From Candidatus Nanohalobium sp. (GTDB taxonomy: Archaea; Nanohalarchaeota; Nanosalinia; Nanosalinales; Nanosalinaceae), in NCBI GenBank assembly GCA_042217545.1, contig JBDGSM010000052.1, positions 1 to 12,891 on the forward strand: a stretch of DNA of 12,891 nt, in the 5' to 3' direction. The position numbers were made by a program, and so were the translations under genes. The notes beneath the pieces were generated by a model, which saw nothing but the letters and a program-made list of their open reading frames with translations, was not told the DNA's origin and did no database searches. Positions 3,984-12,891 of this stretch are shown piece by piece (the first letter of the stretch is position 1; every line of letters begins with the position of its first letter).

Positions 3984-4205
3984 CTAGGTGAATGTCATTT
4001 TTCCCTTCCGATCGTAGTAGTTTTCAAGAAGTTCTTCTTCCGTCATATCAAGGACTGCTGAGAACCCGTCGTTCTCTATTTTTTCACCCAGTTCCCCGAC
4101 CCTGACTCCTTCCACATCAGTGGCCTTGAACGAGTAGGCCGTGCCTTTGAGATCCCTGTAGATGTCCCTGCTGTCTAGCTCGGTTATGTCGTTGCAGACG
4201 TACTC
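3984..4205 (-). pseudogene. Out-of-frame C-terminal continuation (73 codons) of the 4184..4786 gene
   Basis: Open frame EYVCNDITELDSRDIYRDLKGTAYSFKATDVEGVRVGELGEKIENDGFSAVLDMTEEELLENYYDRKGKMTFT*. It is acidic and protein-like, has no start codon near its 5' end, and overlaps the end of the upstream ORF in the -1 frame. Confidence 0.75.
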
Positions 4206-4786
4206 TCAGCCATGATCCTTACTAGTGATTCGTCTATCCCTTTCAGGCCTGCTGCTTCAAAGAACCTTTCGTAGGCTTCCTCCCCGTACTCCTCCTGGAC
4301 ATAGTCAGCCTGGCGGAGAAGCAGGTCACGGTTGAAATCCGGGTTGACCCTGAAATCGTCCTCGCTCAACTGGAAAATCTGATTCAGAGTTTCGTGATCC
4401 AGATCTTTCAGCCATTCAGTAAGCATGCCTTCAGTCATCAACTCCCACATATCCCTGAAGTCGTACTCCAGCTCCGGGACATCAAAGTTATCCCTGAAGT
4501 AGGTATGTGAGGCTTCATGCACCTCTGTCTTCCTTTCCTCGATGCCTTTGAAGGAAAGGCTAGACAGATTGCCCTCCACCAATCTGTGGTTCTTATGGTC
4601 AAACTCGGGAAAGATCACGGACTTCCACTGATCCTCCCGGGGATCAAAATGACCGCTGCTGGCCGTCTCACCTACCACATCAATCTCGACTTCAGGAAGA
4701 ACATCCGTATCCACGCCGATCCAGTTGTAGAACCGCTTGACCTCGCCTTCAATAAAGTCCTCAGAAACATGGTAATCAGTATTCAA
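4184..4786 (-). CDS. Hypothetical zincin-like metallopeptidase (HExxH), apparently truncated by a frameshift
   Basis: EVHEASHTYF followed 24 residues later by an EG motif (LMTEGML) that could supply the third Zn ligand. TTG start at 4786 with SD GAGGTGG at 4797-4791. Confidence 0.7.
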   Translation of the reverse strand: MNTDYHVSEDFIEGEVKRFYNWIGVDTDVLPEVEIDVVGETASSGHFDPREDQWKSVIFPEFDHKNHRLVEGNLSSLSFKGIEERKTEVHEASHTYFRDNFDVPELEYDFRDMWELMTEGMLTEWLKDLDHETLNQIFQLSEDDFRVNPDFNRDLLLRQADYVQEEYGEEAYERFFEAAGLKGIDESLVRIMAESTSATT

Positions 4787-6609: not shown

Positions 6610-6795
6610 TTAGAGGAGGAAAGTCAACTTCAAACCCCCCCCTCACCTCCGACTTTCCTCCCCTAAAACCTATATTTCAACGGCAGGAAAAGGAGATTCC
6701 CGCAGTTCAATCTTCCGGAAACCCCACAGGTTTTCGGCTTGAACACGAAAACTCCCCCTCCCCCCCTTACGCGGGAATCGCCTTCACATCCTGCC
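6610..6795. other. Two long inverted-repeat structures with C-rich loops downstream of ftsZ (candidate sRNA, 3' UTR structure or terminator)
   Basis: A: TTAGAGGAGGAAAGTC (6610-6625) / GACTTTCCTCCCCTAA (6651-6666), 15/16 paired. B: GGCAGGA/TCCTGCC, AAGG/CCTT, GATTCCCGC/GCGGGAATC enclosing GTTCAA/TTGAAC and CCGGAAACC/GGTTTTCGG (6682-6795). Confidence 0.7.
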
Positions 6796-6870
6796 TTACT
6801 CTTTATTACTAACTCCTTCCCAAAGATCCAGGGAAAACTGTTTAACTCTTCGGCCGTAATAACAAATTCA

Positions 6871-7371
6871 GTGGATAACCAGAACTTCTACCTCAAAATA
6901 TCAGGAGCAGCTATCTCAGTAATACTTGCAGCCTCAGCACTAATTCTCAACACAGGAATCCGAGGCCTTACCGCAGCAGCATTCACAGCAGCCGCAGCAG
7001 TACTGATCCGGAGCGCCGAGAAAAGCTCCCGGAAAACAGGAAGAACGGACAGGATGAAGGCAACCCTCAAAGCAGTAAAACCTGCAGCAGAACTTATACT
7101 GATCTCCTCAGGCCTGATCAGCTACTCGCCAACCACAACAGTATCAACAGCAGTAATAGGCCTTGTATCCTTCTCCGAGATCTTCTCCAGAGGAGGCCTG
7201 GAATCACAAGAGTTCTTCGGCCAGGAAGTCCGCACCGGATTACTGATCCTTACCTTCATAGGCCTCACATTCAACGAATACATCCTGTTCTACGGTCTTA
7301 TCGCAGTAGGCCTTGTCGCAGCATTTGACTCGCTCTACATGCTGTACGAATCCATGGATACCGGTTTTTAA
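6871..7371 (+). CDS. Polytopic membrane protein (166 aa), possible degenerate CDP-alcohol phosphotransferase homolog
   Basis: About 5-6 hydrophobic segments. Start moved to GTG 6871 because a TATA-like TTTAAC (6841-6846) preceded by GGAAAA lies about 25-30 nt upstream, and the track's N-terminal extension runs through the hairpin region. Confidence 0.8.
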   Translation: MDNQNFYLKISGAAISVILAASALILNTGIRGLTAAAFTAAAAVLIRSAEKSSRKTGRTDRMKATLKAVKPAAELILISSGLISYSPTTTVSTAVIGLVSFSEIFSRGGLESQEFFGQEVRTGLLILTFIGLTFNEYILFYGLIAVGLVAAFDSLYMLYESMDTGF

Positions 7372-7449
7372 GGCCTTTCTGGCTTTGTTTTGAGAGCTGT
7401 TGTGTTGTGTTCCTCAAGTATTTAATTTTTCCCGCACCCTTTGTTTTGT

Positions 7450-7953
7450 ATGAAGGCTCCAATCTGTAATGTATGTCTAAAGAGCGATGTTCTCTGCAGC
7501 AAGTGTGGGGAGAAGCTGGAAAACGGAGAGATCTCAGAACTCGAAATCGAAGTATCAAGGATCCTGAAGGATCTAAGCAGTGAGTACGGCTCACTGAGAG
7601 ACTCAGAGATCCTTCACGTCTACGACACTGAAAATGTCGTCATCATAGTAACTGCAGAAGGCGACGGAGCAAAAGTCGTAGGCAGAAGCGGCGAGATCGT
7701 CAAAAAGGTCGCGGAAGAGATTGACAAGTCGATCAGAGTAGTCGAGAAAAGCGAGGACGACAGAGATGTTATCAAAGGCCTTTTGAGCCCTGCTGAAGTT
7801 GAAAGTATCAACACAGTCTTCAGTCCAGAGGGCGAGTACAAGAAGGTCGTCGTCAGCGACGAGTACGAGGGCAAGATCAACCTCAGTGAAGACGAGTTCG
7901 AAGAGATCATCGAAGAGATCACAGACACCAAGTACGAACTCTCCTTCGAATAA
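7450..7953 (+). CDS. Archaeal NusA-like protein with N-terminal Zn-binding motif and KH domain
   Basis: MKAPICNVCLKSDVLCSKC (CxxC-x6-CxxC); KH loop VVGRSGEIVKKV...IRVVE. ATG 7450 with TATTTAAT at 7419-7426. Confidence 0.88.
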   Translation: MKAPICNVCLKSDVLCSKCGEKLENGEISELEIEVSRILKDLSSEYGSLRDSEILHVYDTENVVIIVTAEGDGAKVVGRSGEIVKKVAEEIDKSIRVVEKSEDDRDVIKGLLSPAEVESINTVFSPEGEYKKVVVSDEYEGKINLSEDEFEEIIEEITDTKYELSFE

Positions 7954-8056: not shown

Positions 8057-9883
8057 ATGACGACAGACAAAAACAGCAAAAGTTTTATCGTGGCGATCGA
8101 CCAGGAGAAGATCGAGCCAGACCTGGCCCGGGAGACAGTAGTCAAGTACGATCCACTGAACAGGGCAGGAAAAGAGGGAGGTTTCCACGTAACGGAGGAA
8201 GGACAGCTCCACATCGACAACGAGAAGGTGATGGAGGCCCACAAGATGGCTATAAACAAGTACCCTCATGAAGGAGCCATCAAACTTATCCGGCTTGACA
8301 GGGAGTTCGGGGAGAAGATCCACCAGTTCGGGGAAAACGCTTTCCGACTGTACGGACTACCGGAACCGCAGGAAGGCCGCGTAGTGGGAATCCTCGGAAG
8401 AAACGGAATCGGAAAATCCACCGCACTAAAAATACTATCCGGCGACATCAAGCCGAACCTCGGAAACTATGAGGACGCTCCTGACTGGAAGAAGATTCAG
8501 GAAGAATACAGAGGGACAGGCCTCCAGGAACACTTCAACAAGCTAGCGGAAGGAAACGTAGAGGCCTCCTATAAACCGCAGCAGGTGGACAAGATACCAG
8601 AGTTCCACGACGGAGAAGTAGGAGAACTCCTGGAGAAAGCGGACGAGAAAGACGCAGCGGAGAAGTTCGCTGAAAAACTTGACATCGACCATCTACTGGA
8701 CAGGGATATCGACGAGCTTTCAGGAGGAGAGCTGCAGAGAGTGGCGATCGCATCCTGCCTCGTAAAAGATTCTTCTATTTATGTAATCGACGAGCCTTCC
8801 TCATTCCTGGACGTTAAACAGCGTCTGAACGTGGGAAGAGCGATCCAGGAACTTGGAGAGGAGAAGAGTGTTCTAGTGGTAGAGCACGACCTGGCGACTC
8901 TGGACCTGGTCTCCTCGGCGATCCACGTCTTCCACGGAGAGCCGGGAGCATACGGAATGGTGTCGAACGCATTAAGCACCAGAGAGGGAATCAACCAGTA
9001 CCTCGAAGGCTACCTGAAGACACACAACCTGAGAATAAGAGACGACTCCATAAGCTTTGACAGGACGAAGAGAAGCCAGGTGGAGAAGAAAGCTGAAACA
9101 CTGAGCTTCCCTGAGATGAAGAAGAACTTTGGGGAAGACGAGTTCCAGCTAGAGACAGAAGCCGGTGCACTACACGAAGAAGAGATACTCGCGATATTCG
9201 GAGAGAACGGGGTCGGAAAGACCACTTTCGCAAAGATGCTCGCAGGCGCCCTGAAGCCTGAAGAAGGCGAGACACCTGAGGCCTCGGTCAGCTACAAAGC
9301 GCAATATCTAGAAGCAAAGGACGAAAGAGTCGACACCGCGATCAGCAAACATGTCAACCCTGAGTCGAAGAAGTTCAAGGCCAGGATCGCAGAACCGTTA
9401 GGCCTTGAAGACCTGTACGAACAGAACCTGCAGGAACTTTCCGGAGGAGAGCTACAGCGCGTAGGAATCGCGATCTGCCTCGCAAGAGAAGCGGACGTTT
9501 ATCTCCTGGACGAGCCATCAGCCTATCTGGATGTCGAATCCCGTGTAGAGCTAGGTAAGGCCCTGAAACGGTTCGCGAGAAAGACGGAAAAGCCGCTCAT
9601 GGTTATCGACCACGACCTCCTCCTTCTCGACTACATCGCGGACAGGGGAATGGTCTTCACAGGAGAACCAGGAAAAAGCGGGAAGACCACCGAGCCATTG
9701 AAGATCGAAGAGGCGATGAACGAGTTCCTGAAAGAAGTCGACATCACCTTCAGAAGAGACCCTGAGACCGGAAGGCCTCGCGCCAACAAGTCTGGTAGCC
9801 AGAAAGACAAAGAGCAGAGGAAGAACGACGAGTTCTACGAACAGAAAGCACTGAAGAAAAACAGTGATGACGACGATGAATAG
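8057..9883 (+). CDS. rli: Ribosome recycling ATPase ABCE1/Rli1 (N-terminal FeS-type domain lacks cysteines)
   Basis: FRLYGLPEP, Walker A GRNGIGKST and GENGVGKTT, two LSGGELQR signatures, DEPS Walker B, EHD/DHD H-loops, hinge TFRRDPETGRPRANK. Start moved to ATG 8057 (TATTAAAA at 8026-8033); the track's extension is a low-complexity off-frame overlap with the upstream gene. Confidence 0.97.
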   Translation: MTTDKNSKSFIVAIDQEKIEPDLARETVVKYDPLNRAGKEGGFHVTEEGQLHIDNEKVMEAHKMAINKYPHEGAIKLIRLDREFGEKIHQFGENAFRLYGLPEPQEGRVVGILGRNGIGKSTALKILSGDIKPNLGNYEDAPDWKKIQEEYRGTGLQEHFNKLAEGNVEASYKPQQVDKIPEFHDGEVGELLEKADEKDAAEKFAEKLDIDHLLDRDIDELSGGELQRVAIASCLVKDSSIYVIDEPSSFLDVKQRLNVGRAIQELGEEKSVLVVEHDLATLDLVSSAIHVFHGEPGAYGMVSNALSTREGINQYLEGYLKTHNLRIRDDSISFDRTKRSQVEKKAETLSFPEMKKNFGEDEFQLETEAGALHEEEILAIFGENGVGKTTFAKMLAGALKPEEGETPEASVSYKAQYLEAKDERVDTAISKHVNPESKKFKARIAEPLGLEDLYEQNLQELSGGELQRVGIAICLAREADVYLLDEPSAYLDVESRVELGKALKRFARKTEKPLMVIDHDLLLLDYIADRGMVFTGEPGKSGKTTEPLKIEEAMNEFLKEVDITFRRDPETGRPRANKSGSQKDKEQRKNDEFYEQKALKKNSDDDDE

Positions 9884-10160: not shown

Positions 10161-11084
10161 ATGACAGACTGGACCGCAGACGACATGCCGGATCTCAAAG
10201 GTAAAACCGTTATCGTTACAGGAGCTAACTCAGGCCTAGGATTCGAAGCTACAAAGGAACTCGCCCGGAAAGGCGCAAATGTAACGATGGCATGCAGGAG
10301 CATCGAACGCGGGAAAAACGCGAAAGAAGAGATAGAGAAAGAAATTCCCGGGGCCTCTCTCGAGGTAAGACAGCTTGATCTTGCAAGCCTTGAATCGATC
10401 GACGAGTTTGCGGAAGAGTACAAGGCCAACCATGAAGAACTCGATATACTCTGCAACAACGCAGGCCTCATGAACATTCCAAGACAGGAAACGGAGGACG
10501 GCTTCGAAAAACAGTTCGGCGTAAACCACCTCGGACACTTCGCACTAACATCAAAACTTCTCCCAGTACTGAAGAAAGCCGAAGAGGCAAGGATCGTGAC
10601 ACAGAGCTCAGGCCTCCATGAGAGAGGAAGAATCAACTTCAACGATCTTATGAAAGAGGGAAAATATGATTCAGGACAGGCCTACGCAGACTCAAAGCTG
10701 GCCAACGTCCTGTTCGCCTACGAACTTGACAGGAAGATCAGGAGGGAAGGCCTCGACATGAAATCGGTCGCTGCCCACCCCGGTTTCGCAGCCACGAACC
10801 TTCAGAACGCCGAGGAGAACGATAACTTCTTCCTGAAAGAGCTCGGTATGAAGGCCTTCACGAAAATCTTTGCACAGAGTGCTGCCAAAGGCGCTCTGCC
10901 TATGCTATACGCTGCGTCGGCTTCATATGTTGAAGGCGGCGAATACATCGGGCCAGGAGGTCTGATGAATATGAGAGGTCTTCCAGAGAAACAGGAAAGT
11001 TCAGAGGCCTCTTATGACACAGAGACGGCTGAAGAGCTGTGGGCTGTAAGCGAGGAGTTGACAGGCCTGAGTTTTGAGGTCTAG
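10161..11084 (+). CDS. Short-chain dehydrogenase/reductase (retinol dehydrogenase/WWOX-like subgroup)
   Basis: TGANSGLG, LDLAS, NNAG, FGVNHLGHFALT, catalytic YADSK, HPG, LWAVSEELTG. Confidence 0.96.
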   Translation: MTDWTADDMPDLKGKTVIVTGANSGLGFEATKELARKGANVTMACRSIERGKNAKEEIEKEIPGASLEVRQLDLASLESIDEFAEEYKANHEELDILCNNAGLMNIPRQETEDGFEKQFGVNHLGHFALTSKLLPVLKKAEEARIVTQSSGLHERGRINFNDLMKEGKYDSGQAYADSKLANVLFAYELDRKIRREGLDMKSVAAHPGFAATNLQNAEENDNFFLKELGMKAFTKIFAQSAAKGALPMLYAASASYVEGGEYIGPGGLMNMRGLPEKQESSEASYDTETAEELWAVSEELTGLSFEV

Positions 11085-11437
11085 CTTAATGTGCCTCGCC
11101 ACAGGTCGAGGCCTGGAATACTCAGGTATGTTTCCTCGTTTGCGCTGAGGTAGAAAAGTGGTTCTTGATCCTGTTCGACAGCTACTTTCAGGTCTCCGCC
11201 GTCTATCTCCATGTACTGCTGGACGTTTTCCTCTCCGCCGAAGGAGTCTACAAGGCGTTCGTATCTGTCACCCAGATCTGTCTTCCACTTCATCTCGGTA
11301 TCATCCGGGTAGGAGATCTCTGCACGCCCCATGACCTGCAGCTGGCTTCTCACCTGTTCTGTGTCTGTAGGCCTCAAAGATTCACGTACAACGCTCCAGT
11401 TATCCCCCGGCTCCCAGCTATTCCTTGAAATGTACAT
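11081..11437 (-). CDS. Hypothetical protein (~118 aa)
   Basis: Acidic ORF filling the gap between SDR and Nudix genes; its stop overlaps the convergent SDR stop in CTAG (11081-11084). ATG 11437 preferred over TTG 11446. Confidence 0.8.
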   Translation of the reverse strand: MYISRNSWEPGDNWSVVRESLRPTDTEQVRSQLQVMGRAEISYPDDTEMKWKTDLGDRYERLVDSFGGEENVQQYMEIDGGDLKVAVEQDQEPLFYLSANEETYLSIPGLDLWRGTLS

Positions 11438-11510
11438 AGGAAACAATTAACGGCAAAAATCTAAAAGAGAACCGGCACACCTAAAAAATTCTACACAGCA
11501 AAAGCTTTCC

Positions 11511-12476: not shown

Positions 12477-12520
12477 CAACAGGATTTCGGATTTAAGTTT
12501 TTGATACAGTGTACAGGTTC

Positions 12521-12891
12521 ATGGGGGAATGGGGTGAACCGGTTAGAAGTTTTCTTAACGGCGACAACCCTTCTGATCCCTCTGATTTCGCCCGGTTGAT
12601 GGGCTCTAAAGTCCCGGGCTGGCATCCTTCTCAGGTTTCTCCTCCAAGCGGTGAAGAATCAGTCGACCGCGATCCGATGAGAGAAGGCGATGCACAGATG
12701 ATCGCGAATAGCTTTGAACGGATGGTCGCCGAGGATTACTCAGGAAAGAATATCAGCGACGGTAAGGACTCTGAAGGAGAGGCCGACGTCGTTGTAGGCC
12801 TTAACGACCGAGCTTACGGCTGGCCGATCCAGGTGAAGTCCTGTCTCATGTACAGGATGGACAGCAGTTCGGACAGAGGCTACAGGCCTGG
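12521..12891 (+). CDS. Putative PD-(D/E)XK superfamily nuclease (5' part; runs off window edge)
   Basis: Not in track. MGEWGEPVRSFLNGDNPSDP...IANSFERMVAEDYSGKNISDGKDSEGEADVVVGLNDRAYGWPIQVKSCLMYRMDSSSDRGYRP shows a helix-E ... AD-hhh ... hQhK pattern. TATA-like ATTTAAGT at 12491-12498. Confidence 0.65.
   Translation, partial: MGEWGEPVRSFLNGDNPSDPSDFARLMGSKVPGWHPSQVSPPSGEESVDRDPMREGDAQMIANSFERMVAEDYSGKNISDGKDSEGEADVVVGLNDRAYGWPIQVKSCLMYRMDSSSDRGYRP

Follow-up and report, generated by a model that had tools for sequence, protein, structure and literature searches.

The window analysed here, meaning the whole stretch of 12,891 nucleotides from Candidatus Nanohalobium sp. (contig C48 in an 82-contig genome of 1,032,751 bases, with a completeness of 92.19% and a contamination of 0.5%), encodes a homologue of the ribosome-recycling ATPase ABCE1 (Rli1) whose N-terminal domain lacks all the cysteines that hold the two iron-sulfur (Fe-S) clusters of canonical ABCE1 (Table 1). 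The frame begins with an ATG at position 8057, its stop codon lies at 9881-9883, and the product has 608 residues. A longer frame, opening with TTG at 7799, was rejected, as its extension is a low-complexity stretch rich in Ser, Thr and Arg that overlaps the upstream gene, and the homologues start at the ATG of 8057. The protein matches the NCBIfam equivalog profile for ABCE1, NF009945, with 719.7 bits (cut-off 469), its residues 11-596 falling on profile positions 4-590 of 592, and aligns with ABCE1 from P. abyssi (3bk7) at E 1.2e-160 (residues 9-594 on 19-605). Pfam PF00005 (ABC_tran) matches it twice, and neither the RLI N-terminal domain PF04068 nor Fer4 PF00037 is among the matches listed (25 of 39, at E <=1). 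The closest named homologues come from Nanohaloarchaea archaeon SG9 (89% identity), Candidatus Nanohalobium and Candidatus Nanosalina. In both cassettes, the residues of Walker A, the signature, Walker B and the H-loop show no variation across 59 aligned relatives, which bears out the two intact ATPase domains claimed in a preliminary description of this DNA.

Table 1. Features of the ABCE1 locus (positions counted from the first nucleotide of the window)
Feature	Position	Strand	Basis
ABCE1/Rli1 gene, 608 codons and stop	8057..9883	+	ORF (open reading frame) reading, NF009945 match, 3bk7 alignment, genome search
N-terminal domain, residues 1-83, Cys-free, homologous to the ABCE1 Fe-S domain	8057..8305	+	alignments, profile, model, dN/dS
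First motif: I19, A24, V28, D32 replace Cys 1-4; E20-P21-D22 loop retained	8111..8152	+	
P33-L-N35-R36-A-G38 loop, aligned to uS12-contacting P25/R28/S29 of S. solfataricus ABCE1	8153..8170	+	
Second motif: V58 (or M59), H62, A65, Y69 replace Cys 5-8	8228..8263	+	
Walker A, nucleotide-binding domain 1 (G114-S121)	8396..8419	+	invariant columns G114, N116, G117, G119, K120
ABC signature, domain 1 (L221-E225)	8717..8731	+	sequence and alignment
Walker A, nucleotide-binding domain 2 (G382-T389)	9200..9223	+	sequence and alignment
ABC signature, domain 2 (L461-E465)	9437..9451	+	sequence and alignment
NusA-like KH-domain protein, 170 aa, N-terminal Cys pairs; upstream neighbour, context only	7441..7953	+	

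Residues 1-83 contain no cysteine and the whole protein contains two. This is not unusual in itself, because cysteine makes up only 0.72% of the proteome and the chance of a Cys-free stretch of 83 residues is about 0.55. The non-random part of the signal lies in the eight columns that are Cys in every canonical row of a 19-row alignment. When aligned by MAFFT with canonical archaeal sequences, the window protein has I19, A24, V28, D32, V58, H62, A65 and Y69 at these positions; HMMER places two small indels otherwise, with M59 for V58 and a gap at the third Cys (V28). They are the same residues that the preliminary description had assigned to the ligand sites (I, A, V, D, V, A or H, A, Y) when it reported that the first 80 amino acids (8057-8296) are free of cysteine. 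Because all eight ligand columns are non-Cys, we file the protein as an ABCE1 ortholog by descent and as a cluster-free variant, not as an Fe-S ABCE1. The P-x-N-R loop is invariant or nearly so in 60 Cys-free N-domains, and its residues P33, R36 and A37 align to P25, R28 and S29 of S. solfataricus ABCE1, a stretch described as contacting uS12 (PMC7196836). Likewise, E20-P21-D22 aligns to the K12-P13-D14 loop, for which a clash with domain 2 has been described that couples closure of the ATP sites to movement of the Fe-S domain (PMC7196836).

The N-domain is under purifying selection. Within family f1, to which the window genome belongs, it is conserved to the same degree as the ATPase body, with identities of 93 vs 88, 84 vs 75 and 74 vs 70% (N-domain vs body). 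The ratio of nonsynonymous to synonymous substitution (dN/dS) of the N-domain, taken against two genomes of the same genus, comes to 0.027 and 0.034, compared with 0.036 and 0.040 in the body. A profile of the 60 Cys-free N-domains, searched against the PDB, finds ABCE1 chains only (11 distinct sequences, the best being 6tmf_d at E 1.5e-8) and is colinear with residues 3-91 of 6tmf_d. An AlphaFold model of the full-length protein, for which the input was an alignment of Cys-free sequences alone with no templates, reaches a mean predicted local distance difference test score (pLDDT) of 87.6, with 86-95 for the blocks of the N-domain. The predicted model superposes on mammalian ABCE1 in its ribosome-bound state (3jag_jj; Z 41.6, root mean square deviation 2.2 Å) with 570 of 577 residues aligned, spanning 7-596 of the model, and matches the ABCE1 fold, including the helix-loop-helix insertion and the hinge regions, whereas structures without an Fe-S domain align to it only from residue 82-83. 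Structure prediction, which had been proposed as a check, therefore supports a placement of the N-domain in the position of the canonical Fe-S domain, as far as the model can be trusted.

A single ABCE1 was found in the window genome, where the next ABC ATPase scores 81 bits; the second, canonical copy that the preliminary description had allowed for was looked for in this genome and none was found. One match per genome is also what we see across the phylum, including eight closed, single-contig relatives, the exception being G044, where another contig holds a second match that is truncated at its N-terminus. Matches at E <=1e-60 occur in 53 of 70 phylum genomes, divided by family, with the window genome excluded, into 45/49 in f1, 1/1 in f2, 0/1 in f3, 0/10 in f4 and 6/8 in f5. 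Of the 54 matches, which include the window's own, 50 others were read at the N-terminus, and the three that do not reach it (G060, G047 and the second piece of G044) were left out. Among the 43 loci from f1, 41 are without Cys in the N-domain (one of them cut by a contig end), G030 has one Cys at a non-ligand position and G036 has five. All six f5 loci are without Cys, and the f2 genome (G001) has a canonical ABCE1 with nine Cys in the N-domain. The protein database agrees, with 119 of the 120 best homologues Cys-free in this domain and the G036 protein as the exception. To judge from these N-termini, in a lineage of family rank the cluster-free form is fixed and is the sole copy.

Family f4 belongs to the same order. 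No ABCE1 was found in any of its ten genomes (G003-G012, 80-93% complete): the strongest hidden Markov model (HMM) match, of 94 bits, concerns an ABC domain of generic type, and protein matches reach 55 bits at best. Nine of the ten have eRF1_3-domain genes of aRF1 and Pelota size; the window genome also has two eRF1_3-domain proteins, in frames of aRF1 size and Pelota size. Life without ABCE1 seems possible in this order, since f4 lacks the protein and mostly keeps the aRF1-like and Pelota-like genes. The f4 genus g28 has 14-19 radical S-adenosylmethionine (radical-SAM) genes and is without a SufBD match.

Forms of the domain that keep some of the eight cysteines exist as well. When the N-domain was searched with phmmer against 1.84 billion representatives, 22 matches reached E <=0.001, and these come in the order cluster-free forms, forms with Cys 1, 2, 3 and 8 (some with Cys 7 as well), and canonical forms. 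The single-cluster ABCE1 of small-genome archaea of DPANN type (P0263-P0285, and two genomes discussed below, G077 and G100) has in common with the window protein D, V and H at Cys 4-6, a one-residue insertion before the H, and the motif DP[LI]NRSG..GF; it differs in that it keeps Cys 1, 2, 3 and 8, a full ligand set for one [4Fe-4S] cluster, where the window protein has I, A, V and Y (Table 2). The D, V and H shared at Cys 4-6 suggest one early loss of the C4-C7 cluster, and the differing residues at C1-C3 and C8 suggest two later losses of the other cluster. The G036 ABCE1 (L015, G036:C20:5020-6950) combines an f1-type body, 76% identical to the window protein, with a five-Cys N-domain that is 67-72% identical to single-cluster forms and 44% to that of the window; with this N-domain as query, 30 proteins were obtained, of which 24, not counting the query, are of single-cluster type. 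From these identities it looks like a domain swap that would have restored one cluster site.

Table 2. Residues at the eight cluster-ligand positions in the forms of ABCE1
Form	Cys 1-4	Cys 5-8
Canonical ABCE1	C C C C	C C C C
Single-cluster ABCE1	C C C D	V H S/C C
f1 ABCE1	I A V D	V H A Y
f5 and halobacterial second copies	V V A D	V H I/V I

Cluster-free ABCE1 is also found outside the phylum. When an f5 protein was used as query, many of the matches came from named Halobacteria, and 117 of 118 were Cys-free in the N-domain. Haloferax sp. Q22, Halosimplex aquaticum, Haladaptatus salinisoli and a halophilic Thermoplasmatales metagenome-assembled genome (MAG) have both a canonical copy (893-944 bits; nine Cys in the N-domain in the three Halobacteria, eight in the Thermoplasmatales MAG) and a cluster-free one (679-716 bits), so that the cluster-free copy stands beside a canonical one in four of the five genomes searched whole. 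Of 81 genomes sampled evenly across the class, with 14 candidates scored in each, 79 had an ABCE1 in the canonical range (898-958 bits; N-termini were read in a few) and two had a cluster-free second copy, one of the two being the seed genome. A cluster-free ABCE1 as the norm in ordinary haloarchaea was rejected on these counts; in large-genome Halobacteria it can occur as an extra copy. The records that hold the second copies of Haladaptatus salinisoli, Haladaptatus halobius and Natrinema zhouii (L107, L111, P0196) are titled plasmid or chromosome 2, a location that fits an accessory, transferable gene. These halobacterial and Thermoplasmatales second copies likewise have a Cys-free N-domain with D, V and H at Cys 4-6 and form one clade with the nanohaloarchaeal proteins; they differ from the window protein in standing beside a canonical copy, in being rare, and in having V, V, A and I at Cys 1-3 and 8 instead of I, A, V and Y. 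G077 and G100, each about 2 Mb in size and assigned to the GTDB class that includes Haloferax, carry a single-cluster ABCE1 as their sole copy (L129, G077:C1:1174850-1176800; L130, G100:C40:8150-10100), and it groups with the nanohaloarchaeal f1 proteins, not with the canonical halobacterial copy. ABCE1 has been called essential in H. volcanii, on the strength of unpublished results and in a statement that does not specify the copy (PMC3828320).

Trees were inferred from the ATPase body alone (LG+G4, quick search, support from the Shimodaira-Hasegawa-like approximate likelihood ratio test, SH-aLRT); several rows have deviant composition, and the long-branch rows P0290, P0291, P0130 and P0126 were dropped for the second tree. 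They place the canonical halobacterial copies with Methanosarcinia (100%) and the canonical Thermoplasmatales copy with Thermoplasmatota, and they unite f1, f5, the second copies and G077 in one clade (97-99%), within which G077 is sister to f1 (97%) and f5 goes with the second copies (96%, internally unresolved). G001 as the sister of the cluster-free clade was not retained, being found with 85% in the first tree and unresolved in the second. Duplication inside Halobacteria was likewise rejected as the origin of the second copies, the approximately unbiased (AU) test rejecting monophyly of the two halobacterial copies (A+B; log-likelihood difference 181, p 7.5e-8) for a group that was named after the tree had been viewed. 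Whatever the rooting, these trees require transfer among halophile lineages. A broader account, which we offer as tentative, is that ABCE1 went from two clusters to one and then to none, the last step being taken twice in nanohaloarchaeal lineages, and that the cluster-free form spread as an adaptation to oxic, iron-poor brine by transfer among Nanohaloarchaeota, some Halobacteria and a halophilic Thermoplasmatales lineage, while f4 dispensed with ABCE1 altogether. If this is true, Fe-S clusters, and even ABCE1 itself, would not be universally required for archaeal ribosome recycling. The D, V and H substitutions held in common also provide a rare-change marker by which the ABCE1 genes of several halophile lineages can be linked.

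For the window protein, we consider it likely that the sole ABCE1 of this organism has an N-domain that descends from the two-cluster Fe-S domain and is now a cluster-free structural module, the clusters having been lost stepwise while Fe-S biogenesis was kept. The C4-C7 cluster would have gone first, giving the state seen in many small-genome archaea, and the C1-C3/C8 cluster afterwards, with hydrophobic, Asp and His side chains filling the former cluster sites. The N-domain has probably retained the mechanical role of the Fe-S domain: resting on nucleotide-binding domain 1, it would be pushed off when both ATP sites close, as ABCE1 helps to split the ribosome with aRF1 or Pelota, and once splitting is complete it would dock onto the small subunit close to h44 and uS12. 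Such a loss would rid an essential protein of a cofactor sensitive to oxygen and iron and leave the need for Fe-S biogenesis in place, because clusters are still made for a few other enzymes.

Several points weigh against this interpretation. That the domain holds no metal and that the protein splits ribosomes we infer, and oxygen or iron as the selective cause is a proposal. In the comparison that gave the dN/dS values, dS approaches saturation at about 1.3. Since AlphaFold was trained on ABCE1 structures, the full-length model does not count as independent support, and on its own the N-domain gives a weak model (mean pLDDT 64.4, with a beta-alpha-beta-beta-alpha-beta topology); fold matches of this lone model fall below significance, the best Foldseek E being 0.025, to P. 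furiosus ferredoxin, with ABCE1 chains lower, and the best VIA Z being 3.8. The residues K15 and N17, which are described as contacting h44 rRNA in S. solfataricus ABCE1 (PMC7196836), align to L23 and R25 in the window protein, so that docking on the small subunit may differ. A second ABCE1 copy would also be possible in the window genome, because its completeness is 92%.

The preliminary description had gone on to propose that the domain frees recycling from Fe-S biogenesis in a reduced genome, an explanation by which the genome has lost this biogenesis and a cluster-free domain makes recycling independent of Suf, SMS or Isc. The Fe-S proteome of the window genome is indeed very small, with no Fer4 (PF00037) match in the whole genome and one radical-SAM gene, and SufB is represented by a 73-residue match and SufD was not found in this assembly. 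Nevertheless, SufS (cysteine desulfurase, 449.8 bits) is intact, an intact ORF is read as SufC-like, the radical-SAM protein, with its CxxxCxxC motif, is read as Elp3-like, and a PP-loop protein with 13 Cys is read as NcsA/TtuA-like. The last 103 residues of SufB (98% identical to G040, a closed genome of the same genus) lie in frame behind the N-terminus of an alcohol dehydrogenase (C47:4147-4695; L006:1261-1809). In G040, sufD-sufB come after a transporter gene that adjoins sufS, and contig C39 of the window genome ends exactly there. Metagenome contigs from two salt-lake runs are loose-ended on both sides of the dehydrogenase/SufB junction, some with 232-255 letters of other sequence upstream, and none of those listed has 31 letters on both sides of position 1498, where the junction lies. 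The fusion frame is probably an assembly chimera and not a gene loss, and with a chimera-like junction and a contig end at the place of sufD-sufB, loss of Suf from this genome was rejected as unproven. In the family as a whole, SufBD and a radical-SAM gene are each present in 47 of 49 genomes, the latter usually as exactly one gene of about 530-550 residues, and in G001, which is 93% complete and has a canonical ABCE1, no SufBD match was found. The correlation of Cys loss with Suf absence that had been suggested as a check consequently fails both ways, because the family keeps SufBD and G001 has canonical ABCE1 without it. The extra cluster-free copies in Halobacteria with large genomes also speak against a link with genome reduction. 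By its gene content the cell is one that still makes Fe-S clusters for a few other enzymes, and the retention of SufS, SufC, a SufB fragment and an Elp3-like enzyme makes escape from Fe-S biogenesis a very unlikely explanation.

Another possibility is that the domain has exchanged one cofactor for another, with Asp32 and His62 (former Cys 4 and Cys 6), perhaps together with His52, binding a single metal ion or other cofactor in place of the first cluster. D at C4 and H at C6 are present in every single- and zero-cluster row of the 19-row alignment, and D32 and H62 are invariant, and H52 nearly so, in sets of 60 and 59 sequences. However, this gives two or three candidate ligands only, the other two positions being V and A, I or S, and the Asp-His pair could equally form a buried hydrogen bond, a staple in place of the cluster; we hold a bound metal ion to be unlikely. 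The claim of the preliminary description that this is a natural metal-free ferredoxin-like domain holds in part: the protein is a real ABCE1 in which cysteine does not ligate two [4Fe-4S] clusters, and its freedom from metal is presumed. It could also be argued that the function has changed, so that the window ABCE1 no longer recycles ribosomes and splitting proceeds by another route, as it would in f4, where ABCE1 is absent throughout and the aRF1-like and Pelota-like genes are mostly kept; the altered rRNA-contact residues point the same way. Yet the protein is a single copy with its ATPase motifs conserved over the full length, its model matches ribosome-bound ABCE1 over residues 7-596, the purifying selection on its N-domain equals that on its body, and the loop that contacts uS12 is retained. 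With these features, a change of function seems to us hardly credible, and a cluster-free structural module in a working ABCE1 remains the reading we prefer.

Two other observations concern Fe-S genes. The primase large subunit was considered as a second case of cluster loss and rejected, the evidence being an 18.5-bit match in a 463-residue ORF with four Cys (G000:C9:22852-24243), which is read as a primase small-subunit-like fusion; no separate gene for the usual large subunit, which binds Fe-S, was found in the window genome. SufB-like frames of 829-890 residues occur in G039:C71, G067:C15 and G047:C58, and in these frames the SUFBD_core match falls into two distant pieces, which would fit an intein inside SufB.

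Canonical ABCE1, as known from P. abyssi (3BK7), S. solfataricus (6TMF chain d) and mammals (3JAG chain jj), has its architecture, length and twin ATPase sites in common with the window protein and differs from it in the eight cluster-ligand Cys, all of which are replaced, and in K15 and N17, where the window protein has L23 and R25. The CxxCxxCxxxCP-type motifs of the bacterial-type 2x[4Fe-4S] ferredoxin domain are absent from the window N-domain. Full-text literature searches found no description of a Cys-free or single-cluster ABCE1, and the cluster-free form is apparently undescribed in print. The Fe-S domain of ABCE1 has been described as essential (PMC7196836, citing Barthelme 2007), and the yeast Fe-S protein Rli1 as an important target of reactive oxygen (PMC3442406). 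A family in which the sole ABCE1 is without cluster ligands, and in which the domain is under strong selection, constitutes a natural experiment, and it implies that the clusters would be structural staples and not part of the splitting chemistry. It also offers an oxygen-insensitive ABCE1 for biochemical and structural work. The closest parallel that we can cite is haloarchaeal TFE-beta, which has lost its Fe-S cluster and kept the domain, as apparently has RNA polymerase subunit D (RpoD), with iron scarcity or oxidative stress suggested as causes, along with a trend towards low Cys content (Blombach et al. 2018, PMC5861453). These are likewise losses of a structural Fe-S cluster from a core information-processing protein of halophiles, although the proteins are different ones and ABCE1 goes unmentioned in the text of that paper (PMC5861453). 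The window ABCE1 would add to TFE-beta and RpoD as an example of structural Fe-S clusters shed by halophiles.

The genes around ABCE1 have housekeeping functions. The minus strand carries GatB, polyprenyl synthetase, GatA and metallophosphoesterase. No Pfam match at E 0.001 was obtained for four window frames of 121-210 residues, at 4184-4786 (-), 6739-7371 (+), 11081-11446 (-) and 12509-12889 (+); the product of the second of these is read as hydrophobic and is probably a membrane protein. On the plus strand, ABCE1 is accompanied by FtsZ, the KH-domain protein listed in Table 1, a short-chain dehydrogenase and a tandem NUDIX protein.

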